64,000 bases of DNA, from positions 20,622 to 84,621 of the forward strand of contig WRBD01000002.1 in NCBI GenBank assembly GCA_009779835.1. Direction: 5' to 3'. Shown piece after piece: positions 23,041 to 61,132 of the stretch (position 1 is its first letter; each line of letters begins with the position of its first letter). The notes below the pieces were generated by a model. That model saw only the letters and a program-made list of their open reading frames with translations. It ran no database searches and was not told where the DNA came from. This stretch comes from Defluviitaleaceae bacterium (GTDB lineage Bacteria; Bacillota; Clostridia; Lachnospirales; WQUN01). The translations under genes and the position numbers were made by a program.

Positions 23041-23056
23041 TATCAAACACCCTTAA

Positions 23057-25003
23057 TTAATTTTCAAAAGCGCGATAAGTAATTTCCAGTTTCGGAGATT
23101 CGCCCGGAATTGAAAAGATTAATTGCTGACCGTCTTCCCAAATAATTTTTTTCTTGAAAATTGAATTGCCATCGCCATCTGTTATATGGCATCCCGAGCC
23201 TTTTTTATGAAGTTGAATTATCGGTTGATTACCTTGCATTCCGGGTGATAGAAGAATATCCCATATGGGAATGCCCGATTGAACAAGTTTGTCTGCCTTT
23301 GAGCCACCCAAGCTATTGTTTAAGAATTCCATCAGCGACATTTCACCGGCGAAAGTGCTGATATCCGGGGCTTCAAGAGATGTGTAATTACCGTCGGAAA
23401 GTAGTGCGCGCAATTCTAAGTGACCTGTGTAAACGCGATTTCTTATTCTGCGAAGACTTATTACTCGTAAAAGTATTGCGGCAACTGCAAGCGCGACAGC
23501 TATTCCCATTAAAATAAAAATCATGGAACTGCCTGTTTCAATGTCTTCGGGTTCGGTTGCAACAACGGGCGAAGGGGTTTCTTCCGGTTCCGGCTGCTCC
23601 GGCGGTGTTTCTGTATCTTCAATTTCATCCGGTATGGTGGACGGAGGGGCAGGTATTTCCCTCAATACTTCCGGGTCAAAGGTGATGGAAAAAAACGCGG
23701 TGGTTTGCTCGAAATGCGGGTGAGATACATTTACGTTTACACGAACATCCTGCGGAGGGTCAAGAAAAAAATCCAACGTGAAAGCAGACCCTGTATTTAC
23801 CATCGGGAAAGTCGCAACAAGGTTATGTTGCATATCGTAAACGGCAAGCTCCACCGTCGCTCCATCAAAAAGCGGCTGAAAATGTGACGACGGTAACGAA
23901 GAAACAAACCCTGCCTGCACCGCGATTGGCAATGACGGGTCGAAGTAAAGCGCGCCGTCTTCGGCACTTGGCTGGGTTACGGAAAGCGAAACATTCACAT
24001 TATAATTGTAAATTAAATTTATTGTAATTCTATCTTCGGGCAAGCCGCGAACGTGAAGAAGCCAATCGCCCACCATAGGTGAAAGCACCTTAATCATGGA
24101 ATAACGATTGGCAAATGAAAGTGTATACGGTTCTTCACCGAGCGGCACTTCAATCCCGGACGGGTCGAAAAGGCGTATGCCCGGAATTTGCCGCGACGAA
24201 AGCATAATAATATTTGCTTCCGCAACAAAAAGGCTTGGAATAGGAACTATAACATCTGCGTAGGTTTCACCGTCGGCTACTATTGACGCAATCTCCGTGA
24301 TGGACGAGCGTATGTGCGACGCGAATATTTCATTAAAAATCTGCGGCAAAGCATCGGCTTCGCTCGCGATATAAGACTTTGCGCTTGTGCGCTGTGCAAT
24401 TTCATGCAAGAAAGGCTCATTTAAAGTTCCGTCGAAATTTAACCCGATTGTGTAAATAGCGGCAAAATCGCCGACATTATCAACCGCCCACCATGCGTCT
24501 TCGTATGAAGCTTCTACAGTGCGGTTGTTTGCCCAATTGGTTGGAAGTTCTATTTGTCCGTCGGTGAAAAGCAGAATCATCGGGCTGTTAGAGGGCGACG
24601 GGTCATTAATAAGCATTTCGGCGGCGGTTCGCATTGCCAAACCGATATCCGTCCAACCGTGATACACAAAACCCGAAATCGTCCGTCTTATATTATTTCT
24701 TATGGAAGGGTCATTTATTTGCGTAAGCGGCATTACAGAATGCAAACCGCCCGAAAACCCCACTATTCCGATACGCGAATTACGCGTTTCCATCATGTCC
24801 ATAAAAAGTTGCGCCGCTTCAAGAGTAATGCGTTCAGGGTCTGATGTACGCATAGAGCCGCTTGTGTCAATTACCAAAATTACGTCAATGCCATCTGCCG
24901 GGGCTTCTGCCACCGCCGGAGTATGTACAAAAAGAAACGCAAATAAAATAGAAACCGCAAGATAAACAAGCCACATAACGCTTTTTGCGCGATGACCAAT
25001 CAC
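23057..25003 (-). CDS. Single-pass transmembrane von Willebrand factor A (vWA) protein; first gene of the operon
   Basis: Signal peptide ...FLFVHTPAVAEA, then vWA with MIDAS DTSGSMRTSD (nt 24854-24868), a beta-rich region, a Pro/Glu linker, TM segment MIFILMGIAVALAVAAILLRVI (nt 23463-23528) followed by RRIRNR, and a cytoplasmic tail of about 130 aa. GTG start. Confidence 0.8.
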   Translation of the reverse strand: MIGHRAKSVMWLVYLAVSILFAFLFVHTPAVAEAPADGIDVILVIDTSGSMRTSDPERITLEAAQLFMDMMETRNSRIGIVGFSGGLHSVMPLTQINDPSIRNNIRRTISGFVYHGWTDIGLAMRTAAEMLINDPSPSNSPMILLFTDGQIELPTNWANNRTVEASYEDAWWAVDNVGDFAAIYTIGLNFDGTLNEPFLHEIAQRTSAKSYIASEADALPQIFNEIFASHIRSSITEIASIVADGETYADVIVPIPSLFVAEANIIMLSSRQIPGIRLFDPSGIEVPLGEEPYTLSFANRYSMIKVLSPMVGDWLLHVRGLPEDRITINLIYNYNVNVSLSVTQPSAEDGALYFDPSLPIAVQAGFVSSLPSSHFQPLFDGATVELAVYDMQHNLVATFPMVNTGSAFTLDFFLDPPQDVRVNVNVSHPHFEQTTAFFSITFDPEVLREIPAPPSTIPDEIEDTETPPEQPEPEETPSPVVATEPEDIETGSSMIFILMGIAVALAVAAILLRVISLRRIRNRVYTGHLELRALLSDGNYTSLEAPDISTFAGEMSLMEFLNNSLGGSKADKLVQSGIPIWDILLSPGMQGNQPIIQLHKKGSGCHITDGDGNSIFKKKIIWEDGQQLIFSIPGESPKLEITYRAFEN

Positions 25004-44780: not shown

Positions 44781-44970
44781 TTGAAACCTCCACCGCTTAA
44801 AATCACGGTATATTTATATACTCGCGAACGTAAACCTCTACCGCACAGGCGCGAGTATAACATATGTTTCCCTAAATTTCATTATTTACGTGGGAAAGCA
44901 TGGTATTTTCCTTGACAAAGATAAATTATTCGTATAAATAAAGCACAGTCGTTGAAAGGGGTAACATTAA

Positions 44971-45615
44971 ATGTCAAGCACTAGCGCGGTCAGGGAATTT
45001 TTTCAAAAGCATATATTTTTTTTGCTTGGCGGAGTGTGTGTTTTTATTGTAGGAATTATTTTTATTGCAAGCCAAAGAACGGCGACGGATGTTATTCGTG
45101 ACGGCGAAATTATTTTTGACGCGCAAGATGCGAAGGATGTGCCTGTATCTTCATCTGCCGTTGAGACTGATTACATCATTGTACATATAGATGGGGCAGT
45201 GAATTTGCCCGGGGTTTTCAGTTTGCCTGCAAGCGCAAGGGTTGAAGACGCATTGCTTAAAGCGGGCGGCGCAACCGCCGACGCAAATTTATCCGGCATA
45301 AACCGCGCCGATTTTCTGCAAGACGGAATGAAAATAAATATCCCCGCGCAAGGCGAGGACCTGGATGAAATATTCATTTTCGCAACCGAACCCGCCGGGC
45401 GCGGCGGAATAAACAGCGACGGATTGATAAATATAAACACAGCAACCCTCACCGAGCTTCAAACCCTGCCGGGAATTGGCTCAGTTAGGGCAGAAAGTAT
45501 AATAAGCTTCCGCGAAACCCACGGAAATTTTTCAAACATAGAAGAATTAATTAACATATCCGGGATAGGCCCAAGCATAATGGAAAGACTCCGGGACAGG
45601 GTTACAGTAGAGTGA
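44971..45615 (+). CDS. comEA: Competence protein ComEA (SLBB plus helix-hairpin-helix DNA receptor)
   Basis: N-terminal TM segment, SLBB-like VHIDGAVNLPGVFSLPASARVEDALLKAGG, and tandem HhH INTATLTELQTLPGIGSVRAESII...ISGIGPSIMERL. Confidence 0.8.
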   Translation: MSSTSAVREFFQKHIFFLLGGVCVFIVGIIFIASQRTATDVIRDGEIIFDAQDAKDVPVSSSAVETDYIIVHIDGAVNLPGVFSLPASARVEDALLKAGGATADANLSGINRADFLQDGMKINIPAQGEDLDEIFIFATEPAGRGGINSDGLININTATLTELQTLPGIGSVRAESIISFRETHGNFSNIEELINISGIGPSIMERLRDRVTVE

Positions 45616-45750
45616 AATACCGGCCTCTTTATTCAAAATAAAATAACATTTGCCAAGTTTACCTGTCAACAGGGGATTTAATTATATTTTCGTTTAAACA
45701 GGACGCTGAAATATGTGTCCTTTTTTTGTAATTTTATTATCTATGCGACG

Positions 45751-45795
45751 GGTTGACTTTTGTGGTTGACATAGTGGGTTGATTTTAAGGTTGAC
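45751..45795 (+). promoter_or_regulatory. Four phased direct repeats GGTTGAY (candidate operator), the last overlapping a TTGACA -35 box
   Basis: GGTTGAC 45751-45757, GGTTGAC 45764-45770, GGTTGAT 45777-45783, GGTTGAC 45789-45795, with spacing 13/13/12 nt. TTGACA at 45791-45796. Located 55 nt upstream of the XRE/ImmA gene start. Confidence 0.5.
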
Positions 45796-45850
45796 AAATT
45801 TGGATTTTTCGCATACTCTTTTGATATACCAAGAAATGGGAGGTGAACCT

Positions 45851-46984
45851 ATGTTCAATGGAGAAAGATTGGCTGAGATACGCATCGTCAGAAACATGAC
45901 CCAAGAGCAATTAGCAGTTCCGCTAGGGATATCAAAGCAAATGGTTTCAAGGTATGAAGACGGAAAAAACATACCGCAAAGTGAAACGGTTAAAAAAATG
46001 GCGCAGCTTTTGTCCATACCGATAAAATGCTTTTATAAAGATAATTTTGCTTTTGACACAAAATCTTCCACAGTATTTTTTAGGGCTAATATAGACACCT
46101 CAAAAAAAGTAAGGGAAAACATTAAAATTGCAGGTAAATGGGGTTATGAAATTTTAAAAGCAAATGAAAAATTATCAAACCCTTTTTTAACACTTTCGAT
46201 AGACAATAATCTAACCATCCCCGAAAAAGCAACCGTGCTTAAACAGAAATGGGGTATCGGAGATAATCCGGTTGAAAATATGGTGGCGTTGCTGGAGATA
46301 CACGGGTTTAATATTTTTACTGTTGATTTCCCCGGATTAAAAACAGAAGCTTGCTCACAAATTATAAATGGCATTCCAATAATCGTGATAAATAAAAATA
46401 TTGGAACCGCTGTTCGACAAAGATTTAGCTTGGCGCATGAGTTAGGTCATATGATATTGCACAGAGGAATTGCCCATTGGGATTTTGAAATTAGAAATAC
46501 AGAGCTTGAAAAAGAAGCACATGAGTTTGCCGAATATTTTTTATTGCCAATGAAAGGTTTTGAAAAATCGCTTTTACCGCTCAAGATAGAGAAACTGATT
46601 GAGTTAAAAAGGAAGTGGAAAGTTTCATTGGCGGCATTGGCTATGCATTGTAAAAACACCGGATTAATTGATGCTTCGGAGTGCGATGCTCTTCATAGAT
46701 TTATCAGTACCCGTGGATGGAAAAAATTTGAGCCGTTAGATGATGAGTTTGAGTACGAAAAACCATATGCGATGGGGCAACTTGCGTTAAGCACAGCAAC
46801 GGATAAAGATACTTTTTTAGAGTTTTTTGACAAGGTACTGTTACCCGCAGATATCATTGAAAGTTTATGTTCTTTGCCAAACGATACATTCACAGGCATT
46901 TTGAATGGTTCGTTTGATATGAACGATACAGCCGGGTTTGAGCAACTGGATTTGTCTGATATTGGAGGTGACCACAATGCTTAG
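45851..46984 (+). CDS. XRE-family HTH fused to ImmA/IrrE (COG2856) zinc metallopeptidase
   Basis: N-terminal FNGERLAEIRIVRNMTQEQLAVPLGISKQMVSRYEDGKNIP (HTH_XRE) and central SLAHELGHMILH (HEXXH). ATG 45851 follows GGGAGGTGA. Confidence 0.8.
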   Translation: MFNGERLAEIRIVRNMTQEQLAVPLGISKQMVSRYEDGKNIPQSETVKKMAQLLSIPIKCFYKDNFAFDTKSSTVFFRANIDTSKKVRENIKIAGKWGYEILKANEKLSNPFLTLSIDNNLTIPEKATVLKQKWGIGDNPVENMVALLEIHGFNIFTVDFPGLKTEACSQIINGIPIIVINKNIGTAVRQRFSLAHELGHMILHRGIAHWDFEIRNTELEKEAHEFAEYFLLPMKGFEKSLLPLKIEKLIELKRKWKVSLAALAMHCKNTGLIDASECDALHRFISTRGWKKFEPLDDEFEYEKPYAMGQLALSTATDKDTFLEFFDKVLLPADIIESLCSLPNDTFTGILNGSFDMNDTAGFEQLDLSDIGGDHNA

Positions 46985-47945
46985 AGAGGTATCACTTGAA
47001 GTAATCAGAAAATGTTCAAGCAACTGTTTGCACTGCTCTTCTTTATCAAATGAGCATTGTACAGAAATTTTAGATTATGAAATATTTCCCGAACTTGCTG
47101 GGGATACAGTCGCATTAGGAGGGAAGACGATTTGTTTTTCAGGGGGAGAACCGTTTTTACACGACAAAATTTCCAATATGATAAAACTTACTTCATCTCT
47201 CGGATTACAAACATACGTTTACACTTGCGGAATTGTATTTGATGAAAAAAACAATAAAACTTCAATTGATAAAGATATTTTAAAAGATATTTCCCCTTAC
47301 GTAACTAAACTGATATTTAATATTGAGGCTGCAACACCTGACATATATGACAAAATCATGGGAACAACCGGTTGCTTTGAAAAAATGAAGCAATCCATTT
47401 GTGATGCCCATGATTTAGGCATTACAACAGAGGCACATTTTGTGCCTATGAAATTGAATGTAGATGAAGCGGAAGCTGTCATAGATTTATGTAACAGTCT
47501 AAATGTTTCAAAATTAAGTTTTTTACGATTAGTTGCGCATGGCCGTGCGCAAGAAAACGAAGAAATGATTTTGTTGCCTGATGCGGATTTAGAATTATTC
47601 AAGACCGGATTAGATAAATTATCTAAACAGTCAAAAGTGGAAATTCGTATAGGGGTCCCCCTTTCTGCCAATAAACTTCAACATAAGTGCGAAGCGGCAA
47701 TCGGAAAGCTAAATATCAAATACGACGGCACTGTGTTTCCTTGCGAAGTATTTAAAAATGACCGCATATCCCGTCACTTAAAGGGCACGGTACCCGAAAA
47801 TATCTATAAAAAACCGTTGCGGGAAATATATCTCAATTCAACATATCTGAACATTGTCAGAGAGTTATCAAAAAACTTTCAATGCAACGATAATTGTGAA
47901 ACATGCATAGGGCAGTATTTGATAACCAAAGAAGGGGTTATGTAA
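46977..47945 (+). CDS. Radical SAM enzyme with SPASM/twitch-like C-terminal Cys motifs
   Basis: CSSNCLHC (CX3CX2C, nt 47013-47036), FSGGEPFLH, C238-X12-G-X4-C256 (nt 47688-47744) and CNDNCETC (nt 47883-47906). The ATG overlaps the upstream stop by 8 nt and is preceded by GGAGGTG. Confidence 0.8.
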   Translation: MLREVSLEVIRKCSSNCLHCSSLSNEHCTEILDYEIFPELAGDTVALGGKTICFSGGEPFLHDKISNMIKLTSSLGLQTYVYTCGIVFDEKNNKTSIDKDILKDISPYVTKLIFNIEAATPDIYDKIMGTTGCFEKMKQSICDAHDLGITTEAHFVPMKLNVDEAEAVIDLCNSLNVSKLSFLRLVAHGRAQENEEMILLPDADLELFKTGLDKLSKQSKVEIRIGVPLSANKLQHKCEAAIGKLNIKYDGTVFPCEVFKNDRISRHLKGTVPENIYKKPLREIYLNSTYLNIVRELSKNFQCNDNCETCIGQYLITKEGVM

Positions 47946-47946
47946 A

Positions 47947-49497
47947 ATGAGTATATATAAAGACCGTGATTTGCTGAAGAAATGCATTGAAAGAGAGGCA
48001 ACTGACTTGTTCCCTGCGTCAGTATGCTGCCATCCCCTTGATGAAGAAGTGGTTAGAAAACTTCAAAATCTGTGGTCAAAATTTGACACAGATAGTGATG
48101 ATTTCAGAATATTTAAATTCCGCAAAGAGTTTATAGACCCATTGTGGAAAATGCTCATCGAGAAAGCAATAAAATGTTTACGGTATTATGACACAAGGGA
48201 ACCATTTTCAGGCAACCCCGGTCAAAAGGTTCCAAAAGCGTATGGGATTGTTGAAATTAAAAAATATTATGACCAGTATACAGATTTTGAAAGCGTGTTA
48301 TACGGTGCCAACAGTTACTACAGAGACCATGTCGTTCACGTTTTTAGAACATGGCTACTTGGCGTTAGGCTGTTAGTTAAAAACAATGGTGAATATCTAA
48401 ATGAAATTAAACTCCATGAAAAAGACATGGATGTAGCTTTGGAAAATTCCGAGAAGCTTAGTATGTGGACAATCATTGCACTTACCCATGATTTGGGATA
48501 CCCTTTGCAAAAGGCAAAAAGTATCATTGATACTACAAAATCCATGGTGTCTACTTTTATTTCCAATCCCGATATATCGTTGGACTTTTCGTTTCATGGT
48601 GTACAAAATTACATGAATGACTTTATTGTCCGCTTGATGAGTTCGAGAATGAGGAAATCAGATAAAAATGAGCAAACTGACGTAGAAGAAGCTGAAAGTA
48701 TGTATGCCGCAAGATTGCAACCCAAGTATTACTTTAAATTCCTCAAGTCTTTAGAGGAAAACCAGCATGGGATATTAAGTACATTAATCATTTATAAGCT
48801 TCTGACATATTTTATAGAGTCCGATTTTAACATTAACGAAGACTACCTTTTTGATGAGGATGATGCGCGGCAATTCTATATTAGGCGTGAGATATTACGG
48901 GCTATTGCGTCTCATACATGCGATGATGTATATCAACTGTATATGACATCTTTTTCATTTTTACTGCGGATTTGTGATGACGCACAAGAGTGGGGTCGAA
49001 AAAATATTACCGAGCTTTATGTTAAATCCGCAAAAGTATATGAGCTTATAAAACTTGACTTTATTTTTGATAATGCCAACGCTTCACACAACTGTATTGT
49101 TGAGGAAAAACTTGAAATTTCTGACGAACAGGACGCTGTTATTTCAGCGATAAACCGATTCAGAAAACAAGCACTTGTGTATGTAATGATTTTCCGTGAT
49201 GGACAAGATACAGTATCGCGTGATTTTTCGTTTGAGAGGAAACTAACTATTAAGTGTAGTGGATTGGTAATAAATCTATCTTTGGAAATACCTAAAGAAA
49301 GTAAGTCGGAGCTAAGCGTAACTATTGAATATGTTTCTGATGGTAATACCAATAAAAAGTTTTCAAAGGAATTTTTTAAAGATATAAAAGGGATTGAAGA
49401 ACAATTTAAGATAGTGGACAGAAATGATAGCGTTGTAGATGAAAACTCATATCAGGAATGGAAAACCGGGACGTTTACTATATCGTTATTGGAATAG
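47947..49497 (+). CDS. HD-domain (metal-dependent phosphohydrolase superfamily) protein, 516 aa
   Basis: RDHVVHVFRTW (His), IIALTHDLGYP (HD, nt 48487-48492), ENQHGILS, and ICDDAQEWGR (Asp). Starts 1 nt after the radical SAM stop. Family not otherwise recognised. Confidence 0.6.
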   Translation: MSIYKDRDLLKKCIEREATDLFPASVCCHPLDEEVVRKLQNLWSKFDTDSDDFRIFKFRKEFIDPLWKMLIEKAIKCLRYYDTREPFSGNPGQKVPKAYGIVEIKKYYDQYTDFESVLYGANSYYRDHVVHVFRTWLLGVRLLVKNNGEYLNEIKLHEKDMDVALENSEKLSMWTIIALTHDLGYPLQKAKSIIDTTKSMVSTFISNPDISLDFSFHGVQNYMNDFIVRLMSSRMRKSDKNEQTDVEEAESMYAARLQPKYYFKFLKSLEENQHGILSTLIIYKLLTYFIESDFNINEDYLFDEDDARQFYIRREILRAIASHTCDDVYQLYMTSFSFLLRICDDAQEWGRKNITELYVKSAKVYELIKLDFIFDNANASHNCIVEEKLEISDEQDAVISAINRFRKQALVYVMIFRDGQDTVSRDFSFERKLTIKCSGLVINLSLEIPKESKSELSVTIEYVSDGNTNKKFSKEFFKDIKGIEEQFKIVDRNDSVVDENSYQEWKTGTFTISLLE

Positions 49498-49501
49498 CGT
49501 T

Positions 49502-50149
49502 ATGGAAAATTTAACGCTGGAGATATCAACAAAAACAAATTCCGCGGATATTCTGTATTTCGTGGATTTTTGCGTTGAATCTGTAAATAGAGTATCCGCG
49601 CATATTGATAAAGAGAAATTCGACGAACTCTGTTTGACCGGATGCCCGAATTTCAACAAAAAATGGTCTTGTCCGCCATATGCGCCATCGTTTTTGGATT
49701 TTACAAAAAACTGGGAAACGCTGTGTGTTTTATACGCATATACAAACATGTCACAATTCGCGTATATAAAAAATGACTACTTGAAAATTAAGGCCGCAAA
49801 TGTAATATTAAAATCCAGAATTGATGGATTTCTCCGTCAAATATCCTCAAAGTATGGAAATTACATTTCAACCGGTAGCTGCCGCCTATGTAAACCGTGT
49901 AAGTGCAAGTTGCAGCTACCATGTAAGCGACCCGTGAAGATGACATACAGCTTTGAAGCTATGGGTGTTAATGTAGGGAGTTTAGTTGACGAATTCTTTC
50001 AAAAACCACTGTTATGGTACTCGCAAAACAACCTGCCTGAATATACATCCGTTGTTTGCGGGTTATTGACAAACTTAAAAATTACAGAGAATAACCTGAG
50101 AGATGAATATTTGCGGTTTACTAAGATTTTCAACAAGCCAAGTTCTTAA
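49502..50149 (+). CDS. Cys-rich DUF2284-like putative metal/Fe-S binding protein
   Basis: CLTGCPNFNKKWSCPPYAP (from nt 49643) and GSCRLCKPCKCKLQLPCKRP resemble the DUF2284 Cys pattern. ATG 49502 is 4 nt after the HD gene stop. Confidence 0.5.
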   Translation: MENLTLEISTKTNSADILYFVDFCVESVNRVSAHIDKEKFDELCLTGCPNFNKKWSCPPYAPSFLDFTKNWETLCVLYAYTNMSQFAYIKNDYLKIKAANVILKSRIDGFLRQISSKYGNYISTGSCRLCKPCKCKLQLPCKRPVKMTYSFEAMGVNVGSLVDEFFQKPLLWYSQNNLPEYTSVVCGLLTNLKITENNLRDEYLRFTKIFNKPSS

Positions 50150-51612
50150 TTGTATTTTCGCCTTAACCGCACAAATAAACCCGCTCCAAAGAAGCCCAGC
50201 GGAATGCCGAACATTGCAACGCTTCCGATTAATGTTGTTGCTCTGCCGGTGATTAAAAGCGGCATTTGACCGGGGGGAGTTCTTGCGGGGATGAAAATTG
50301 CGGGGGGCTGGTCTTGAAGCCAAAGCAAGGAATTTAAAACGAAGTGCCAATTGCCTTCGCCGATGTACATAGTGTAGTTGGGGTTGTAAAATTCGCGGTT
50401 ATTTACCGCTACGATTCTTGTGTAATACGCCGTACCTGCAATGAAAATGCGTTCTGTTACGGCAAGGGCTAGCGGAAACGGGCCGGGGGTGTCTGTTGGT
50501 ATTCGCGACAGCGTTTCGGCTTCTTCATCTAAGTAGCGCGAGAACGATTCTTGCGACGTAAACCATAACGGTTCAATTTCAAGGGTGGTTCTGCGAACGG
50601 GGTTGATTCGCATTTCCGCCGGGAAAAACGGAACAAGGTTTGCGAAATTCCGCGCAAAAATGTTTTCGGTTATTTCATGTTGCATGATATTGGGCACGAT
50701 ATGGAAAAATGTGCGACCACTGAAAATATTTTGCGGGTTGTCCTCGAAAATTAAATAATCGGCAATGGAAATGCCGTATGCGTCCAAAATATTTGCAAGG
50801 TTTGGCGTTGCAACGGGCGCGAGGTCAAGCGCGAAAAACGCACTGCCCTCGGCTTCAAGGAATGCGAGAACACGCTCCGCCTTTGGCTCAGTCCAGTCGC
50901 GCACGGGCATTGATATGAAAAGAATATCCGCATCGGCAGGGATTTCTTCAAGTACAAGATTTATTTCGCGAATCATAAAATTTTCCGATTCAAGGAATGC
51001 AATCAGTTGCGACGGAAGCGAAGCCTCACCGCTTCCGGTTACATAATAGACAACAGCCGTCGCGCCCTGCGTTGTGCTGTGAATTGCGCGGGTTATTTCA
51101 CGTTCTATGTTATAACTTTTTATTTGTGTGACCGCTCCTGTGAATGGGTTGACATCGAAATCCACCATGTTTTGCGGTTCTATTACGCGAATTCCCGTTG
51201 CGGATTCAATTAAGACGCTATGGTCGGGAATGCCGCCCTCAATGTCTGCTTTCTCGGCAAAACGACGGATAAGCGCGGGGTTTAACAACGGGTCGCGTGT
51301 TTCTACGCGAATTCTTGACGAAGCGGCGGCGTACTCATCCAGAAGTTGCGCGGTTATCCGCGAAATATTCGCGAGTGTTCCCGGCAATTCCTGCCCCGCA
51401 CCCGCTATTCGCGTGATGGTAATGTCCTGCTCAAGCTCTGCCAAAAATTCGCGGCTTTGCGGCGAAAGTGAAAAAATTTGTTGTCGCGTGAGGTCAAACG
51501 ACCGGTCAAATTCACCCGCGAGAAGATTTGCAAAAATAAAAATAATTACCGCAAGCAAAACCATAACAGTGGAAAATGTTCCGTAACGAAAGCGTTTGTC
51601 TATTATCGCCAC
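50146..51612 (-). CDS. GldG-like auxiliary component of an ABC-2 type transport system
   Basis: N- and C-terminal TM segments bracket a large extracytoplasmic domain, and the gene is paired with an ABC-2 permease. The pattern resembles the ABC_transp_aux/GldG family. Confidence 0.5.
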   Translation of the reverse strand: MAIIDKRFRYGTFSTVMVLLAVIIFIFANLLAGEFDRSFDLTRQQIFSLSPQSREFLAELEQDITITRIAGAGQELPGTLANISRITAQLLDEYAAASSRIRVETRDPLLNPALIRRFAEKADIEGGIPDHSVLIESATGIRVIEPQNMVDFDVNPFTGAVTQIKSYNIEREITRAIHSTTQGATAVVYYVTGSGEASLPSQLIAFLESENFMIREINLVLEEIPADADILFISMPVRDWTEPKAERVLAFLEAEGSAFFALDLAPVATPNLANILDAYGISIADYLIFEDNPQNIFSGRTFFHIVPNIMQHEITENIFARNFANLVPFFPAEMRINPVRRTTLEIEPLWFTSQESFSRYLDEEAETLSRIPTDTPGPFPLALAVTERIFIAGTAYYTRIVAVNNREFYNPNYTMYIGEGNWHFVLNSLLWLQDQPPAIFIPARTPPGQMPLLITGRATTLIGSVAMFGIPLGFFGAGLFVRLRRKYN

Positions 51613-53197: not shown

Positions 53198-56100
53198 ATG
53201 ATTAGAATAAGAACATTACTTTCAATTTATTTAGCATTTGTCATGACCGTTGCATCCGTTGCATTTCCCGCGCATTTAGTATCGGCTACGGGGAATCACC
53301 ATTTCACGGGCAATGGATTTGAAATTCGCTACACCGTACAGAGTTCGTGGATTAACGGTTACAGTGCCGCGTTGGAGATTATAAACACAAGTTCGCAATC
53401 TCTTGAAGAATGGACGTTGGTTATAAATTCTTCACCTGGATTGAATGCAGGAAACATTTCAGGCGGGAGGATTTTGGCTCAAAGTGCCGCAGAAACTGTA
53501 ATTGTCCACGCGGAATGGAATTCGGTAATACCCGCGGGAGGAAAAGCGAACCTTTCGTTTAACGGAACCCACAATGGCGTAACGCCGGTACCAACGTCTT
53601 TTCAGTTACTTTCCGCAAAGGACGCAAACACAGCAAGCCGAAGGCTAATTCCCTTGACTGAATATACAGTTGAACACATTGTGCATCATGAAACCTCTGA
53701 CAGCTTCAACAATGCCATTGTACTTACAAACAATACAGGAAGTTTAATCTACGGCTGGGAAGTGGAATTTGATATTTCGCCCGGTGCGGTAATAGATAAC
53801 GCTTTTGTTGCTAATATTTCCCAAGATGTTATTCCGGACGGTTCCCGTGTGACGCTTTCCAAGATAACCGGAAGCGGAATTGTTTGGCATCCGGGCATGG
53901 CAATGCATATACAGCTAATGGGCACAAAATCAAGCGATGTACCCGTAGCGTTTTCAAATTTCGCTGTGTATGAACGGACGGCAGGAAATAATAATACGCC
54001 GACACCGACACCGACTCCAACTCCATCTTCAACACCAACGCCCGAACCAACACCGCCGCCGGGGGATATGCCATATATTAGGGTTTTGACAGTATTTCCG
54101 GACAGCACAGTTAATTCATCTTTTGTAGATATCAAGTATATAGCCGAACCCGGTTACGGCGCGGATGTAACGGAAGTATTCTACTCTATTAATGGTCGCG
54201 TTCATGATTATATATACTGGCATGGCAACGCAACGCTGGGGGAAGCCCGTGTATTTATTATTCCCGGTTTAAATCAATTGGAGTTTACCGTGCGGGATTC
54301 GCTTGGACGCACGGCTAACTATGCTATCGAAAACATGCCGTATTTTGACCCCGGCGTTATTGCACCGTTGCCCGAGGATAAATACAAAGAAACTTCCGTG
54401 GTTTACGACGACGAATATTTTATAAATAACCGGCTTAAACTTTGGACTGTTTGGCCAAATGACCACATTAGCCATGATGAAATTATTAACGCAATTGACG
54501 CAAGCGGTTTGGAAGCCGTGGGTTATTCACATGTTACAGGCAGCTACACTGTTCAGGTACCGCAAAATAATGAAGCCGGGCTGGAGACGCTGGGCGAAAG
54601 CTTTGTTGCCGCGCACCCGCGCTTATTTGAGGGATTTGGATTGTTGGGTGGTTTTATTGACGATGACCGAGGACTGCGGGGCGGGATTATCAACGACAGA
54701 TACAATTGCCCTGATAAATTCGAAGACATAGCAAACCACGGTAATGCGGTTTGGCCTATGCCAAACCCTGCAAATGTAGAATACGCAACGCAAGATTACG
54801 TAATGCCCTATATCTACGAACACGGAGAATACAGAAGACGCTATCAATATTATATAAATAACCGCCTTATATTTCATTCGGCGCACCTAAGTTATGAGGA
54901 AATTGCCGAAATCATAGCTCCATATGGTGGAACAATTTTAGGCATTTCCCATATTACACGCCATGCCCTTATCGAATTCCCGACAAATAGCGTAGACGAA
55001 CTGCTTGAGCTTCTTGATTTGGATAATTACGATTGGAGTTTAGAGGAACCGAATCTTCGGCATTTGAGGGAACCGAATCTTATCATAGTACAATCTAATA
55101 ATATTAGTAATTTAGATGATTTCGATGAAAATATGACTTTCGATGCTGATACAGTGCTGCTTCACATGCGTAGTAGAATGCTTTTTGACACTTTTCCCCT
55201 TTCCGGTCGTAGGGGATTGCTTACCTCTGAGGGGGCGGATATATTTCTCTTAAATGAAGCGTGGCTGAACGGGGATGAATTTAACGGACTTGGACTGCGA
55301 GGCGGGATTATCAACGATAGCTTCTATTGCCCTGATAAATACCAAGACATGGCAAACCACGACCATGCAGTTTGGCCTATGCCAAACCCTACAAATGTAG
55401 AATACGCAACGCAAGATTACGTAATGCCCTATATCTACGAAAACGGAGAATACAGAAGACGATATCACTATTATATAAATAACCGCCTTATATTTCATTC
55501 AGCGCACCTAAGTTATGAGGAAATTGCCGAAATTATAGCTCCTTTTGACGGAACAATTCTAGGCATTTCCCATATTACACGCCATGCCCTTATCGAATTC
55601 CCGACAAATAGCGTAGACGAACTGCTTGAGCTTCTTGATTTGGATAATTACGATTGGAGTTTAGAGGAACCGAATCTTCGGTATCTGGGGGAACCGAATC
55701 TTATTATAGTACAGCCTGACAATGTTAATAATCTCCATGATTTCGATGAGAATATAATATTTGATGCTAATACAATACTCCGCATGAATCGTAGATTGCT
55801 TTTCAGCATTCATCACCTTTCCGGTCATAGGGCATTACCATCTGTTGATGAAGGCGCAGATATATTTCTCCTAAATGAAGCGTGGCTGAACGGAGGTGAA
55901 TTTTATTCCCGTCCCTTTCGAGGATACCCCGGATACGAATTTGATTATGGAGTTGCCCCGGCAAACATCCAATTCGAGCCATTTAGTACCGACACTGTTT
56001 CTGCTTGGGGGCTTAATTATATCAATATGCCTTGTGCCTGGGTTTATAATGAGGCGCAAGAAAACCACGAAAGAAAAAACGTCCGAATAGGAATAATTGA

Positions 56101-58681
56101 TACCTCAGTGCAAGCAAACCACCCACTGCTGGAAATTCCCACCGGAAATGTCCATACAAATATTCCAACTGGACACCCTCATGGTACAGGTGTAATGGGG
56201 ATAATCGGCGTGAGGCATAGGCGTGACAGCGGAACTGATCCAGCTATAAATATTGCCCGTGAAAATCTTTTTGCTTTTGACCGTAATACGGCAAGTCGTA
56301 CTACCGGGTTAGAGTGGAATATTATCAGAGGGGCAAGTGTTATCAATTTAAGCCAGGCTGTTCCTATTCGCGATAGAAGGGATTTTCAAACAAAGATGGA
56401 CAGGTTATTGGGCTTGGGATACAATTTTATTGTTGTACAGGCGGTCAATAACGCCAGAGAAAATGCAGATAATGACAAGGAAAATATCACATATACTCCT
56501 TCTGATGCAAGCGAGGAGGTGCGTTTACGCAATAGGAGGTTACGCCGAAACATTATAATGGTTGGCAACCTTACCCCGCCCGACGGACCTTATGCGCAAC
56601 CTGTTGAATGGGGAAGGATACAATATGACCCATCCCTTATTGCCAGTGATCACGACGGTGCGGGAAGCAGTTACGGCTATACTTTAGATGTTTTGGCTCC
56701 GGGAACGGGAATATATGTCATTCGTAACGGGATTTCTCAGACTCCCATAGCAAAAGCCGGCGCATCTTTCGCCGCAGCGCACGTATCTGCACTTGCGGCG
56801 TTAATTTGGGATGAACACCCGGGCTTTACAGGTGCGGAGGTTCGCAGAATTATCATAGAGTCTTCACGCCACCCGTCAAGAAGAATTACTGATATACGGG
56901 AATCCTTACGTAATGAATCTCAGGGGGAGCATTTTGGCAGAGACTATTATGTAATAGACGCACGGGCCGCAATGCAACTGGCAGAAAGTATAAGCTATCG
57001 CGCAAGCAGACGAGGACGGCTTGTAGGGTTGCTTGTTGCTGTCAAGTCAACAATATTCAACCCATTACCCTCTCCGTTTAACCATTATGCGCAACTTACC
57101 CTTACACCCGAGAATTGCTTTAAATCCGCGTCTTGCATTGGTTCCATGCCTTGCGAACATACTGCTATCATAGAAATAACCCCCGAAGACGAAGGGTTTT
57201 ACCGTTTCGATAATCTTACGGTGTTAAGCGAGCACGAAATACAAAATTTACCGGAACAAGAGAGAAGCCTTGCAAACCGTTATAGGCTAACAATAACCGC
57301 CGCCGGTTTTCACCCTGAAACTATTTACAATGTGCATATTCCAAGACCGGGTGTGTCAACACGTTTTGATGATATAAGATTGGTTCCTCTTTCCGAATCA
57401 ATCGCAAGCACAAACACGCTAGATGAAGATAGTCACTTTGCACCGTTCAGCATGGCTGTTGTCCCAATGAACGAACCGAGCGCAAGAGTAGGCGGTAGCA
57501 TATACACAGAAGACAACGAACCGTTTGAAGGCACTGTAACCATTGAGTTACACCGCGGCATATATCTCCTTGAGCCGGAAATGCTGGAATGCGAAGAATG
57601 GGCAGGATTAATTGAATCACTTGAAATGCAACCCGTTAGAACATTGGTAGTATCCAACGGCAATTTTTATGCGGAGGGGCTTCCCCCCGGCAACTACACT
57701 GTAATTGTTTCGGGATGTTGTATAGACACGGAAATAGCCCATGTGATTTCCCACTGGGACGGCGATGGATACTGGCTTAACCAAGATATAATCGTGCGTA
57801 CACGAACGCCAAAGGTTATAAATGATGCCTTTGAGTGCCCGGTGTTTCTACGGTTTGTTCAATCGAACTTATTCAAAGAACATGACGACCCTGTGTATTG
57901 CTGTGACGTGGCAGATGTTACCGGTATAAATGTTCAGAGATTTAGCATTAATAGCCCGGCAATAACCAGCCTTGCAGGAATAGAATATTTCACCTCTTTG
58001 CGCTCATTGTCCGCCAGAGGGAATCAAATAACTACTGTTGATTTTTCAAATAATAGATATTTGCGTGATGTTGGTATTTGGAATAATCAATTGATCGAAC
58101 TGAATGTTTCTAAAAACATATATTTGGAATTCTTGAATGTTAATGGCAATCAACTAATCAGCTTGGATTTATCAAGCAACAGATATTTAAAGCAACTTCG
58201 TGTTGGCAGGAATCAACTTACCAATCTAGTGCTTCCAAACAGTTTGGGGTTTGAAGTGCTTCACGCAGAAGCCAACAATTTGCACAATGTAGATTTGTCG
58301 AATAATCCGGCTTTACGTTGGGTTCATCTTTGTGAAAATCGGCTTACCGGCATAGACTTATCAAACAACGTGAATTTGATAAATGGCGGTATGTGCCTTA
58401 TCTTGAATTATATAACTTCAATTAATAGCATTGTGGGATGGGGACAAGCCGAACTAACTCAAGGCTTAAATTTGTGGTTTGACCCGTGGCGAACTATTTC
58501 GAGCTCGTCAACACTAACGCCATTCGGTTTAGAGTTTGACTTGTACGACCATTTGCCTGATACGTGCTGTAATCACAACGAGTTTGATTTCTTGTTCTCC
58601 ATCTCTGATGTCCCTGACCCCTCCGATATCCCCGGCAAACATTTCTGCACCACAAATATTCCGGAATTCCCGGGGTTATAA
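53198..58681 (+). CDS. Giant secreted multidomain subtilase (S8): 2x CBM2-like, PT linker, repeated prodomain-like modules, S8 catalytic domain, C-terminal leucine-rich repeats
   Basis: Signal peptide. Two CBM2-like modules (GFEIRYTVQSSWINGYSAALEIINTS...). [22 protein letters not shown] linker. S8 triad: IGIIDTS (Asp codon 56099-56101), HPHGTGVMG (His codon 56180-56182), GASFAAAHV (Ser codon 56765-56767). LRRs: NQITTVDFSNNRYLRDVGIWNNQLIELNVSKN... at about 57960-58400. Confidence 0.8.
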   Translation: MIRIRTLLSIYLAFVMTVASVAFPAHLVSATGNHHFTGNGFEIRYTVQSSWINGYSAALEIINTSSQSLEEWTLVINSSPGLNAGNISGGRILAQSAAETVIVHAEWNSVIPAGGKANLSFNGTHNGVTPVPTSFQLLSAKDANTASRRLIPLTEYTVEHIVHHETSDSFNNAIVLTNNTGSLIYGWEVEFDISPGAVIDNAFVANISQDVIPDGSRVTLSKITGSGIVWHPGMAMHIQLMGTKSSDVPVAFSNFAVYERTAGNNNTPTPTPTPTPSSTPTPEPTPPPGDMPYIRVLTVFPDSTVNSSFVDIKYIAEPGYGADVTEVFYSINGRVHDYIYWHGNATLGEARVFIIPGLNQLEFTVRDSLGRTANYAIENMPYFDPGVIAPLPEDKYKETSVVYDDEYFINNRLKLWTVWPNDHISHDEIINAIDASGLEAVGYSHVTGSYTVQVPQNNEAGLETLGESFVAAHPRLFEGFGLLGGFIDDDRGLRGGIINDRYNCPDKFEDIANHGNAVWPMPNPANVEYATQDYVMPYIYEHGEYRRRYQYYINNRLIFHSAHLSYEEIAEIIAPYGGTILGISHITRHALIEFPTNSVDELLELLDLDNYDWSLEEPNLRHLREPNLIIVQSNNISNLDDFDENMTFDADTVLLHMRSRMLFDTFPLSGRRGLLTSEGADIFLLNEAWLNGDEFNGLGLRGGIINDSFYCPDKYQDMANHDHAVWPMPNPTNVEYATQDYVMPYIYENGEYRRRYHYYINNRLIFHSAHLSYEEIAEIIAPFDGTILGISHITRHALIEFPTNSVDELLELLDLDNYDWSLEEPNLRYLGEPNLIIVQPDNVNNLHDFDENIIFDANTILRMNRRLLFSIHHLSGHRALPSVDEGADIFLLNEAWLNGGEFYSRPFRGYPGYEFDYGVAPANIQFEPFSTDTVSAWGLNYINMPCAWVYNEAQENHERKNVRIGIIDTSVQANHPLLEIPTGNVHTNIPTGHPHGTGVMGIIGVRHRRDSGTDPAINIARENLFAFDRNTASRTTGLEWNIIRGASVINLSQAVPIRDRRDFQTKMDRLLGLGYNFIVVQAVNNARENADNDKENITYTPSDASEEVRLRNRRLRRNIIMVGNLTPPDGPYAQPVEWGRIQYDPSLIASDHDGAGSSYGYTLDVLAPGTGIYVIRNGISQTPIAKAGASFAAAHVSALAALIWDEHPGFTGAEVRRIIIESSRHPSRRITDIRESLRNESQGEHFGRDYYVIDARAAMQLAESISYRASRRGRLVGLLVAVKSTIFNPLPSPFNHYAQLTLTPENCFKSASCIGSMPCEHTAIIEITPEDEGFYRFDNLTVLSEHEIQNLPEQERSLANRYRLTITAAGFHPETIYNVHIPRPGVSTRFDDIRLVPLSESIASTNTLDEDSHFAPFSMAVVPMNEPSARVGGSIYTEDNEPFEGTVTIELHRGIYLLEPEMLECEEWAGLIESLEMQPVRTLVVSNGNFYAEGLPPGNYTVIVSGCCIDTEIAHVISHWDGDGYWLNQDIIVRTRTPKVINDAFECPVFLRFVQSNLFKEHDDPVYCCDVADVTGINVQRFSINSPAITSLAGIEYFTSLRSLSARGNQITTVDFSNNRYLRDVGIWNNQLIELNVSKNIYLEFLNVNGNQLISLDLSSNRYLKQLRVGRNQLTNLVLPNSLGFEVLHAEANNLHNVDLSNNPALRWVHLCENRLTGIDLSNNVNLINGGMCLILNYITSINSIVGWGQAELTQGLNLWFDPWRTISSSSTLTPFGLEFDLYDHLPDTCCNHNEFDFLFSISDVPDPSDIPGKHFCTTNIPEFPGL
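54674..55903 (+). repeat. Intragenic tandem duplication, two units of 621 nt (207 aa)
   Basis: Unit 1 is 54674-55294 and unit 2 is 55295 to about 55903. They include a 120-nt identical run (54941-55060 = 55562-55681). Protein repeat: LRGGIIND..CPDK..D.ANH..AVWPMPNP.NVEYATQDYVMPYIYE.GEYRRRY.YYINNRLIFHSAHLSYEEIAEII... Confidence 0.9.
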
Positions 58682-58785: not shown

Positions 58786-58907
58786 CCTTGAAAAAAATAA
58801 AAAAAACGAAATGACATTTGCAATATGTAATAAAAATGTTATACTTTAAATTGAAACAAGCTCGCCGGAGGACGGGTCTTTTCGTGTGGAGGAAGGGGTA
58901 TTGTCGG

Positions 58908-59945
58908 ATGAAAATAATTTACATAGTTGATGATAATGCAACAAATCTTGTAACCGCAAAAAATGCGCTGGAGGGTATTTATGAAACTTTCGCTCTACCA
59001 TCTGCGGCGAAAATGTTCAAGCTTTTAGAAAGAATCACACCGGACTTAATTTTGCTGGACGTTGAAATGCCGGAAATGAACGGTTTTGAAGCGTTGCAAA
59101 TTTTAAAATCGGACGAGGCGTTTAAAAATATTCCGGTAGTTTTTTTGACGGCGAAAAATGATACAGAATCGGAAATACGCGGGTTTGAGATTGGCGCGAT
59201 TGATTTTATCAACAAACCGTTTTCACCGCCGGTGTTAATTAAGCGGATTGAAACACATATTGAAATGGATAAACTTATTAAAAAAAGCTTGCAAAGTGTG
59301 CGTAATATTTATAACGCAACAATAACAAACATTGCGGACATGGTTGAAAGCCGCGACGAAACAACCGGCGGGCATGTTGGCAGAACGCAAAAATATTTGA
59401 CAATTCTTGTGAACCGGCTGCTAAAATCCGGCGCGTATGCGGAAATGGAGGATTGGAATTTAGAGCTGCTTATACCGTCGGCGCAGCTTCATGATGTCGG
59501 CAAAATCAAGGTAAGCGATTTAATTCTTAACAAGCCCGGCAAATTAACCGACGAGGAATTTGCTATAATAAAAAAACATTGCGCGGACGGCGAATATATT
59601 ATTGATAAAATTATCCATGATGCGGGTGAGGACAGTTTTTTAATTCACGCGAAACTTTTTGCGGGATATCACCACGAAAAATGGGACGGAAGTGGTTATC
59701 CACGGGGGTTAAGCGGCGAAGGTATTCCGCTCGAAGGGCGCATTATGGCAGTTGCAGACGTATACGATGCTCTTGTTTCCGAACGCCCGTATAAAAAACC
59801 GTTCACGCATGAAAAAGCGGTTGAAATTATTAAAAATGACAGCGGCACACATTTCGACCCGAAAATAGTAGAAGAGTTTTTGGATGCGTCGGAAGATTTC
59901 CGGGTTAAATCCAGGAGTATGAATGGGGACGGTGAAAAATGTTAA
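58908..59945 (+). CDS. Response regulator with HD-GYP (c-di-GMP phosphodiesterase-type) output domain
   Basis: REC domain (IVDDN...LILLDVEMPEMNGFE...FLTAK), then HD-GYP (QLHDVGKI...HHEKWDGSGYPRGL). Start set at ATG 58908 after GGAGGAAGGGG. Confidence 0.85.
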   Translation: MKIIYIVDDNATNLVTAKNALEGIYETFALPSAAKMFKLLERITPDLILLDVEMPEMNGFEALQILKSDEAFKNIPVVFLTAKNDTESEIRGFEIGAIDFINKPFSPPVLIKRIETHIEMDKLIKKSLQSVRNIYNATITNIADMVESRDETTGGHVGRTQKYLTILVNRLLKSGAYAEMEDWNLELLIPSAQLHDVGKIKVSDLILNKPGKLTDEEFAIIKKHCADGEYIIDKIIHDAGEDSFLIHAKLFAGYHHEKWDGSGYPRGLSGEGIPLEGRIMAVADVYDALVSERPYKKPFTHEKAVEIIKNDSGTHFDPKIVEEFLDASEDFRVKSRSMNGDGEKC

Positions 59946-61132
59946 AAATTTATACAGCGTTTACAAGGGAAATTGACAACCCGGCAACCGCCGCAAATGA
60001 AATTTTACAACAGCTTAATCCGGAAGCGAATGCGTTAAAAAACACGGTAGGCATCATTCATTTTTATCACGAATTTGTGGAAACAGGAGCCTGCCAAGCG
60101 GTCATAGACGCTTTGCCGTTTGAAACGGTGGGCTGCGTTTCTACGTATGTCGGTTCGTGCGAGACATACGACGAAGTCGCGTTATCCGTTACAATGATTA
60201 CCGGCGACGAACTTGATTACTCCATAAAAACAGTTGATGACTGCACAAAAAAATCCCGCGCCGAAATCGCCGGGGAAGCACAAAAAATTTTTGCCGGGTT
60301 TACCGAAACAGATAAACCGAAAATTGTAATGCCGTACTTACCGGCAATGCAAAACTTTAGCGGCGACGATTTGGTTGCGGCGGCAAACGATTTTTCTGAA
60401 ACTGTTCCGCTTTTCGGGACAATTGCGTTTAACATGGAAAACATGGCTGATTCTCATTATGTTTTGGGCAAAGGAAAATTTTCAACGGATATGCTGGTTT
60501 TCATGGCACTTTACGGAAACTTCCAGCCGAAATTCCATACAACGTCTGCATTTGATTTTGAAGAGGGAATAGGCAACACTGCAAAAATTGACGACTCAGA
60601 CGGAACAATTTTAAAATCGGTAAACGGTATGACCGCCGTTGCATATTTAAAAAAACAAGGAATGGTAACTTCCGACAATGCCGTTGAAGGCTTGGTATGG
60701 GCACTTCCTGCTATTTTGGATTATTCAAACGGTACGCGTATTGTTCGTTCTTTTTTAGGCGTAGTCGAAGGTACGGAACATATTTTTGCAACGGGCGAAT
60801 TGGAAAAAGGCGCGAATATTTCTTTCACATATTTAGATGCGTCTAAAACATTGGCAAGTACGGAAAAATTATTGGAAGAAATAAATGCCGCAAAGGAAAA
60901 CGGAGTTATTATATATAGCTGTGCGGCACGGGCATGGTCGTTAGGTTCAAATCATTTTGCGGAAGCGGAAAAAATCGTTGAACACGCCGGGGAATACCGT
61001 GCAAATTACAACACGGAACTTAATTACAGCGTGGCTTATTCCGGCGGAGAAATTTCCCCTATTATTAACATCGACGGTAAACTTATAAATATTTTGCATA
61101 ATTACACACTAATCTCATGCGCTTTTAGCTAA
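59939..61132 (+). CDS. FIST-domain-like sensory protein
   Basis: 397-aa soluble protein whose organisation resembles FIST_N/FIST_C. Its start overlaps the response-regulator stop (ATGTTAA). The domain call is from general pattern only. Confidence 0.45.
   Translation: MLKIYTAFTREIDNPATAANEILQQLNPEANALKNTVGIIHFYHEFVETGACQAVIDALPFETVGCVSTYVGSCETYDEVALSVTMITGDELDYSIKTVDDCTKKSRAEIAGEAQKIFAGFTETDKPKIVMPYLPAMQNFSGDDLVAAANDFSETVPLFGTIAFNMENMADSHYVLGKGKFSTDMLVFMALYGNFQPKFHTTSAFDFEEGIGNTAKIDDSDGTILKSVNGMTAVAYLKKQGMVTSDNAVEGLVWALPAILDYSNGTRIVRSFLGVVEGTEHIFATGELEKGANISFTYLDASKTLASTEKLLEEINAAKENGVIIYSCAARAWSLGSNHFAEAEKIVEHAGEYRANYNTELNYSVAYSGGEISPIINIDGKLINILHNYTLISCAFS

Follow-up and report, generated by a model that had tools for sequence, protein, structure and literature searches.

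The 64,000-nucleotide stretch of DNA analysed here (the window; Defluviitaleaceae bacterium, GenBank assembly GCA_009779835.1, contig WRBD01000002.1, positions 20,622 to 84,621 of the forward strand) carries a cassette of four closely packed plus-strand genes at 45851-50149, hereafter G1 to G4, which encode an XRE-M78 fusion protein, a radical SAM enzyme (rSAM), a protein without a Pfam model and a DUF2284 protein. We lean, with modest confidence, towards reading this cassette as a mobile, self-repressed candidate anti-phage module that would act on nucleotides or nucleic acids. The open reading frame (ORF) listing and translation agree with the layout given by an earlier sequence-only reading, with an 8-nt overlap between G1 and G2, a 1-nt gap between G2 and G3 and a 4-nt gap between G3 and G4. 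The ORF of G1 opens at 45779, but a GGGAGG ribosome-binding site precedes the ATG at 45851, which we take as the start. The cassette and its upstream region comprise the following features.

45700..45728, plus strand: terminator-like hairpin and T-run after comEA, at the left boundary of the low-GC insert (terminator scan)
45750..45796, plus strand: putative operator/promoter with four direct repeats (repeat and motif comparison)
45851..46984, plus strand: G1, XRE-M78 fusion, 377 aa (Pfam, PADLOC, NCBIfam)
46977..47945, plus strand: G2, radical SAM enzyme, 322 aa (Pfam Radical_SAM and SPASM)
47947..49497, plus strand: G3, hub protein, 516 aa (family alignment; without Pfam model)
49502..50149, plus strand: G4, DUF2284 protein, 215 aa (Pfam DUF2284)

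Related loci were collected by exact-protein look-ups, a genome scan (31 loci) and a metagenome scan, in which the first 600 pattern matches gave 454 confirmed loci, 80 of which were kept; three viral contigs and one plasmid were added. This yielded 99 non-redundant loci, 40 of which have enough flanking sequence to be judged, and neighbouring genes were classified by local phmmer. The rSAM gene adjoins G3 in 37 of the 40 well-flanked loci, and at least five rSAM-G3 fusion proteins were found (P0088, P0167, P0223, P0229 and P0256), in clusters below 50% identity. Because the two genes are adjacent in nearly all loci and repeatedly fused, their products would be expected to act together, and gene context strongly supports a functional coupling of rSAM and G3.

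The third component varies among the same 40 loci: DUF2284 is present in 20, an HMUDK_hel protein of ~330 aa (PF18723) in 15, neither in 5 and both in none, an exclusivity with a Fisher p-value of 7.7e-7 without correction for phylogeny. A comparison by hhalign shows no homology between DUF2284 and HMUDK_hel (probability 0.2%). On a neighbour-joining tree of G3, the HMUDK_hel type occurs at four separate places, as does the G1 type, and this scatter suggests that parts are being shuffled; a modular third component and a modular regulator are thus strongly supported. Swapping of DUF2284 for HMUDK_hel is of a kind typical for defence systems and counts in favour of a defence role. The order G1>G2>G3>G4 is itself repeated in about 20 distinct loci from at least two phyla, among them Eggerthellaceae (Actinomycetota), Desulfosporosinus and Clostridia metagenome-assembled genomes (MAGs); other versions of the G2-G3 core are found in Lachnospiraceae, Oscillospiraceae, Acutalibacteraceae, Paenibacillus and Bacteroidales. 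The sequence-only reading had treated the rSAM, HD and DUF2284 genes as a triad that should be co-conserved; the genes do travel together, but the fixed unit is restricted to rSAM and G3, DUF2284 being interchangeable. In the papers searched, no description was found of an rSAM system with HD and DUF2284 or HMUDK_hel proteins, nor of rSAM and HD defence systems.

Regulators vary likewise, being an XRE-M78 fusion, a small DUF6471-like protein or none visible. G1 is carried by 6 of the 40 rSAM-G3 loci. In many others its place is taken by a protein of 73-95 aa with the motif GWTLT.VV..MN....TTVQNISNKLSRG, for example at 6758-6979 of L001 and upstream of rSAM in L014-L020; its Pfam DUF6471 match is sub-threshold (22.6 bits), and it is likely an alternative regulator. 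The XRE-ImmA switch proposed in the sequence-only reading is thus, across the family, just one of several regulators.

Several rSAM-G3 loci are cargo of small mobilizable elements with integrase, NikA or Mob_Pre genes, or lie beside transposases. Defence genes were found next to others: in Lachnospiraceae bacterium 28-4 (L008, 6834-8400), homologues of PDC-M03A and PDC-M03B, a candidate system in PADLOC, (4e-128 and 1.7e-104) stand directly upstream of rSAM-G3-DUF2284, and within ~4 kb neighbours include a type II methyltransferase and a Ppl/AAA-like protein adjacent to the cassette in L020, an AbiLi-like ATPase adjacent to that in L038 and, at further loci, ThsB-type TIR proteins, relaxases and AAA_21 ATPases. 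The commonest architecture is TIR>Nmad2>HMUDK_hel>rSAM>G3, seen in at least 12 loci; Prevotella, an uncultured Bacteroidia MAG and a Parabacteroides distasonis plasmid are among the sources, and on the plasmid an integrase lies beside it. TIR and Nmad2 also precede G2>G3>G4 in L053 and L054, and in two loci (L068, 423-5963; L069, 2916-8346) TIR and Nmad2 genes stand directly behind a cassette of exactly the window type, on the same strand. The suggestion in the sequence-only reading of an anti-phage or nucleotide-modifying system is therefore backed by context, through TIR, Nmad2 and HMUDK_hel in sister loci and through adjacent defence genes.

These accessory genes link the family to DS-4 ('NTTI'), an E. 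coli system found with DefensePredictor and validated as anti-phage (Science 2026, PMC13092281), whose five genes encode a thymidylate synthase (TS), a kinase resembling adenylate kinase, an HMUDK_hel protein annotated as 'putative DNA base hypermodification protein', and TIR and Nmad2 proteins. With queries taken from the supplement of that study, DS-4 HMUDK_hel matches 39 ORFs of the collected loci at ~1e-27 to 3e-32; no ORF of the window matches HMUDK_hel, Nmad2, TIR or the DS-4 TS or kinase queries. In L070 (289-6718) and L071, a minus-strand HMUDK_hel-TS-TIR-Nmad2 operon stands back to back with the G3 gene; its TS homologue (545 aa) matches DS-4 thymidylate synthase at 3e-39, and neither rSAM nor DUF2284 is present. 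In Paenibacillus koleovorans (L036, 2484-9092), a TS homologue, which the DS-4 thymidylate synthase also matches, and HMUDK_hel lie upstream of G3 and there is no rSAM gene; one ORF there has a sub-threshold thymidylate synthase match (E = 0.0028) and further ORFs are TS-like by eye. These loci suggest that G3 can be partnered by TS instead of rSAM. Judged by gene context, G3 is the hub of the family, joined by rSAM or a TS-like protein, by DUF2284 or HMUDK_hel and, optionally, by TIR and Nmad2. The substitutions around it, including the DS-4 kinase in the place of G3, argue for nucleotide rather than peptide chemistry.

The same partners allow a second reading, in which G2-G4 would introduce a modified base into DNA or RNA, either the host's or the element's, for instance for anti-restriction or epigenetic marking, as phage 5-HMUDK pathways do with radical SAM enzymes. 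HMUDK_hel is the helical domain of phage 5-hydroxymethyl-2'-deoxyuridine (5-hmdU) DNA kinases, stand-alone HMUDK_hel proteins are named 'putative DNA base hypermodification protein' in RefSeq (a name on which the literature search returned nothing), and thymidylate-synthase-like genes accompany G3 in L036 and L070. Predictions for HMUDK and aGPT-Pplase proteins reportedly originate with Iyer et al. 2013. Neither a glycosylase-like transferase (aGPT-Pplase) nor a P-loop kinase is among the top 25 Pfam families of the neighbours, however, and tight repression of the RmrA type would be ill-suited to constitutive self-marking. A radical SAM enzyme does take part in thymidine hypermodification in phage M6 (PMC8989533), but it is spore-photoproduct-lyase-like, unlike G2, and the validated relative DS-4 acts as a defence system (PMC13092281). 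None of 50,697 phage genomes has a relative of G3; relatives were found on 3 of 2.9 million IMG/VR viral contigs and on one plasmid. We therefore rejected a phage-encoded origin and, given this near-absence from phage and viral data, assign the G3 family to cells and mobilizable elements. Taken together, we regard hypermodification as unlikely.

Motif evidence on G3 itself is compatible with the phosphate chemistry proposed under the anti-phage reading. The family comprises at least 1300 homologues among the matches listed, and ~680 clusters at 50% identity reach E<=1e-3. G3 has no match in Pfam, NCBIfam or PADLOC and none in the PDB by sequence or profile search, and its AlphaFold2 model (pLDDT 79, pTM 0.85), which is helical towards the N-terminus and alpha/beta in the C-terminal domain, has no Foldseek match at E<1e-3 in PDB or BFVD. 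Conservation lies in the core (residues ~60-360), whereas the C-terminal domain (361-516) varies. In an alignment of 86 sequences with identities as low as 25%, D82, E115, H131, H181, D182, G184, K264, H274, G275, F289, H323, D344 and R351 are invariant. Among these, H131, H181-D182, H274, H323 and D344 follow the H..HD..H..H..D pattern of HD-type metal sites. Sub-threshold matches to Pfam HD (PF01966) occur in 17 of the 86 relatives (best 7.7e-4), other Pfam families each being matched by just one or two, and the single PF01966 match inspected (P0251) falls on the HD dyad. It is reasonable, though unproven, to predict that G3 is a divergent HD metal-dependent phosphohydrolase; of the HD domain that the sequence-only reading had placed in the third gene, the motif proved to be family-wide, whereas a Pfam, profile or structural match is lacking. 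A dedicated dNTPase defence role for G3 was considered and rejected, as no PADLOC model matches the protein. Elsewhere in the window, 58818-61132 on the plus strand encodes a bona fide HD protein, a response regulator whose HD_5 domain is of HD-GYP type, and then a FIST-domain protein; a comparison of the G3 family with this response regulator by hhalign gave a negative result, uninformative because the template was a single sequence.

G2 is a radical SAM protein by both its CX3CX2C cluster motif and its SAM-binding GGE motif, with a Pfam Radical_SAM (PF04055) match at 1.3e-13 (51.9 bits against a cut-off of 29.5) and a Pfam SPASM match of 28.1 bits against a cut-off of 21.5. The motifs listed in the sequence-only reading (CX3CX2C, GGEP and CX12GX4C) are present and widely kept: of 81 relatives, at least 97% share C13/C17/C20, SGGEPF, C238-x12-G251-x4-C256 and C310, and 90-97% have C172. 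The other two cysteines of the terminal CX3CX2C are not conserved in these relatives. Because only C238, C256 and C310 are conserved family-wide, G2 seems to hold one twitch-like auxiliary cluster rather than the full SPASM pair, as this pattern suggests. Matches to viperins are confined to low scores: 33 bits against a cut-off of 180 for NCBIfam NF038283 (viperin_w_prok), and 3.1e-12 (44.5 bits) for PADLOC pVip, covering the generic rSAM core only. The nearest solved structures, PqqE and BlsE, match at only 1e-5 to 1e-6.

This profile raises the alternative of a peptide, protein or cofactor maturation operon, with G2 as a SPASM-type maturase and G3 and G4 as accessory enzymes. The SPASM match fits such a role, and among NCBIfam and PDB entries G2 most resembles PqqE, GeoRSP, tungsten-cofactor maturase, NirJ/Ahb and peptide maturases. 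G2 nevertheless scores no more than 69 bits against cut-offs of at least 267 for these families, and across curated NCBIfam models it reaches no cut-off (best 69 bits, cut-offs at least 180), so that no curated biosynthetic family was recovered. Just three auxiliary-cluster cysteines are conserved in G2. Nor is there space for a precursor-peptide gene, given the 8-nt overlap and the 1- and 4-nt gaps at the junctions and the ends abutting the terminator/operator region and a convergent gene; the small gene found upstream elsewhere is weakly DUF6471-like and is read as a regulator rather than a Cys/Ser-rich precursor. Patchy spread, carriage on mobile elements and nucleotide-related partners also speak against maturation. 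The peptide- or protein-modification option left open by the sequence-only reading is thus disfavoured, having no adjacent precursor gene and partners related to nucleotides, and we consider it very unlikely.

G4 matches Pfam DUF2284 (PF10050) over residues 37-171 at 75 bits against a cut-off of 25, and every G4 homologue among the matches listed carries PF10050. Its two cysteine clusters, CX3CX8C and CX2CX2CX7C, comprise seven invariant residues (C44, C48, C57, C127, C130, C133 and C141), in keeping with the earlier description of a Cys-rich DUF2284-like protein. This invariance makes it probable that G4 binds an Fe-S cluster or metal, as we predict. The AlphaFold2 model (pLDDT 89.8) has no Foldseek match in the PDB, the best TM-score of ~0.29, to CblD, not being meaningful, and we found nothing in the literature on the function of DUF2284.

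G1 combines Pfam HTH_3 (6e-11) and Peptidase_M78 (1.2e-17) domains, as expected from the HTH_XRE and HELGH motifs noticed earlier, and HELGH (H196-H200) is kept in at least 97% of 19 relatives. It matches the PADLOC model of RmrA, the RosmerTA antitoxin (PDLC03947), at E = 1.9e-78, with residues 26-372 aligned to positions 11-369 of the 383-position profile, and on this match is a clear RmrA homologue; against the NCBIfam spr1629 repressor/antitoxin family it scores 178 bits, under the 335-bit cut-off. G1 is therefore a putative repressor and switch of the cassette. Upstream, repeats of GGTTGAC/T start at 45751, 45764, 45777 (GGTTGAT) and 45789, with a spacing of 13/13/12 nt, and the last includes a -35-like TTGACA. 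No -10 hexamer was called at the repeats in a promoter scan, and the promoter was not called, its -10 being weak. We compared six XRE-M78 copies from different lineages (the window, L004, L006, L011, L021 and L033): GGTTGAC is found 2-3 times directly upstream of G1 in the five other loci, and in L004, L006, L011 and L033 these are the sole copies in 5-17 kb. The window holds ten copies in 64 kb, three of them clustered within 45 nt. The conserved repeats are best explained as the operator of G1, to which it probably binds, and the cassette would thus carry its own repressor-operator pair. The self-regulation proposed in the sequence-only reading is borne out to this extent, the repeats lying upstream of all six XRE-M78 copies examined.

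An RmrA-type gene also invites the reading that the cassette is a multi-gene addiction module of RosmerTA type, in which G1 would be antitoxin and repressor, G2-G4 would be toxic, and the main role would be to stabilise a mobile element rather than to defend against phage. G1 is a full-length RmrA homologue resembling the spr1629 repressor/antitoxin family, the toxins that accompany RmrA in RosmerTA are very diverse (PMC10440598), and the cassette is carried as cargo on small mobilizable elements. Yet just 6 of the 40 rSAM-G3 loci have G1, many having another regulator or none, and TIR, Nmad2, HMUDK_hel and the adjoining defence genes indicate immunity. Tested RosmerTA systems do defend against phage, so that this reading overlaps with the anti-phage module that we prefer; as a separate explanation, it appears improbable to us.

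The anti-phage module also appears to be a mobile one. The cassette has a GC content of 36.2% against 43.5% in the rest of the window, and is the lowest-GC 4.3-kb stretch within the 64 kb, ~3 standard deviations under the mean; GC at third codon positions (GC3) is 0.32-0.41 in the cassette genes against 0.45-0.49 in the flanking genes, and the fall in GC starts near 45600-45750. This profile confirms an AT-richness previously judged by eye. Housekeeping genes lie to the left, encoding MutS, SipL, a UvrD-like helicase and a ComEA-like protein (SLBB and HHH domains), and to the right are ABC_transp_aux (GldG-like) and ABC-2 genes, so that domain matches agree with the earlier calls of comEA upstream and ABC-2/GldG downstream. 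The convergent ABC-auxiliary gene (50146-51612) has its stop codon at 50146-50148, overlapping the TAA stop of G4 at 50147-50149; because of this overlap, the low-GC insert abuts a host gene without intergenic DNA. Annotation of flanking-gene domains revealed no integrase near the cassette, an Rfam scan of 44800-50500 gave no match and no riboswitch, and no tRNA, hence no tRNA integration site, lies within the 64-kb window. Horizontal acquisition, as had been inferred from the sequence, is strongly supported by the sharp GC drop between housekeeping genes, the same cassette across phyla and its carriage as mobilizable-element cargo elsewhere.

We propose the following scheme for the candidate anti-phage module. 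The XRE domain of G1 would bind the GGTTGAC repeats over the promoter and keep the operon off, as the conserved operator suggests. An infection or DNA-damage cue may then activate the HExxH M78 protease of G1, so that the repressor is inactivated and the operon expressed; we infer such protease-triggered de-repression by analogy with ImmA/ImmR, IrrE/DdrO, CapP/CapH and the literature on RosmerTA RmrA. G2 and G3 would work as one catalytic unit, with G2 performing radical chemistry on a nucleotide, the substrate suggested by the partners of the family, and G3 handling phosphates. G4 would fill the HMUDK_hel slot as a substrate-presenting protein or, given its cysteine pattern, as an Fe-S redox partner. 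Phage replication would then be blocked because the nucleotide pool is modified or depleted or because nucleic acid is damaged, and this would probably hurt the host too, which could explain the tight repression. In some variants, TIR and Nmad2 may serve as additional effectors or sensors.

Several points weigh against this scheme. The window copy has no nearby defence genes, TIR or Nmad2, and the link to DS-4 runs through accessory genes of sister loci, none of which is in the window. The HD assignment of G3 is weak, without a structural or profile match, and the sequence of G2 is nearest to peptide and cofactor SPASM enzymes (PqqE, GeoRSP, NirJ). Neither G3 nor G4 is covered by a model of PADLOC-DB 2023, in which G2 has just a weak pVip match, and an RmrA-type gene would suit a plain toxin-antitoxin role equally well.

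A broader proposal, which we advance tentatively and as possible rather than expected, is that rSAM and G3 with DUF2284 or HMUDK_hel form the enzymatic core of a large, undescribed antiviral family, an rSAM counterpart of the TS-based DS-4. Such a core would make a new kind of modified nucleotide, or nucleic acid damaged by radicals, unlike the ddh-nucleotides that viperins produce, G3 and DUF2284 would represent new enzyme and cofactor-protein families, and the RmrA-type protease-repressor would serve as an infection-sensing gate.

Radical SAM chemistry in immunity is known mainly via viperin, whose products inspired antiviral nucleotide analogues. The rSAM-G3 family is large (~680 G3 clusters and at least 454 metagenome loci), its hub has no Pfam model, our searches returned no literature on it, and it is linked by accessory genes to DS-4, which is validated and mechanistically unexplained. 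If it is a defence system, it would provide a second or third antiviral radical SAM chemistry, possibly with a new antiviral small molecule, and a functional context for DUF2284, stand-alone HMUDK_hel and Nmad2, and the compact self-regulated cassette with its defined putative operator would be convenient for experiments. Being common in gut Bacteroidales, Lachnospiraceae and Eggerthellaceae, the family could then affect phage-host dynamics in the gut microbiome as well.

Two further regions of the window were noted. An operon-like run of large genes on the minus strand (15818-25003) includes three without a Pfam match (616, 215 and 466 aa), a 1114-aa Tubulin_2 (PF13809) protein at 19702-23046 and a 648-aa VWA-domain protein at 23057-25003, and looks like an uncharacterised tubulin-like/vWA system on the basis of these domains. 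On the plus strand, 53198-58681 encodes a secreted-looking protein of 1827 aa with CBM_2 and Peptidase_S8 domains, a near-identical internal duplication of two ~190-aa copies starting GLRGGIIND...PNLIIVQ and a C-terminal region that is leucine-rich-repeat-like by eye.

When set beside known systems, the cassette does not belong to pVip, DS-4 or two-gene RosmerTA and, by its domains, probably not to Ophion either; it would resemble a RosmerTA-gated system in its control, and viperin, Ophion and DS-4 in being directed at nucleotides. Of the DS-4 genes, three out of five (HMUDK_hel, TIR and Nmad2) have homologues in sister loci, where they share an operon with rSAM and G3, and both systems would combine a base- or sugar-modifying enzyme, a phosphate-handling enzyme and HMUDK_hel/TIR/Nmad2 accessories. 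The window cassette, in contrast, has none of the five DS-4 genes; rSAM and G3 stand in place of the DS-4 thymidylate synthase and kinase, and DUF2284 in place of HMUDK_hel. RosmerTA resembles the cassette through G1, which has the build of RmrA (HTH and ImmA-type Zn-protease) and matches it over its full length, but RosmerTA consists of two genes with a single toxin whereas three enzyme genes follow G1 here, G2, G3 and G4 match no PADLOC RmrT model at E<=0.1, and most rSAM-G3 loci have no RmrA gene.

The ImmA/ImmR, IrrE/DdrO and CapP/CapH pairs control mobile-element, damage-response or defence operons. They share with G1 an M78 Zn-protease and an XRE repressor, here with an intact HExxH and a putative operator at the promoter, and differ in that protease and repressor are fused in G1, as they are in RmrA. 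pVip offers a radical SAM enzyme in an antiviral context, weak model matches to G2 and the expected logic of a modified nucleotide poisoning phage replication. G2, however, scores 33 bits where 180 are needed and scores higher against the SPASM-type GeoRSP and PqqE, its obligate partner is G3 rather than a kinase, and its C-terminus includes an auxiliary-cluster region, matched by Pfam SPASM, that viperins, to our knowledge, lack.

Ophion is the nearest analogue in logic. This system of Gammaproteobacteria comprises the rSAM OpnA, the PHP phosphoesterase OpnB and the phosphoribosyltransferase (PRTase) OpnC, and its authors propose interference with nucleic acid synthesis (bioRxiv 10.1101/2025.09.30.679545). 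Its phosphoesterase is PHP rather than HD and its third protein a PRTase rather than DUF2284 or HMUDK_hel, OpnA being compared by description only, and Pfam finds no PHP or PRTase domain in the cassette proteins. What the two would have in common is a set of three enzymes, in which a non-viperin rSAM is joined by a metal-dependent phosphoesterase and a nucleotide-related third protein.

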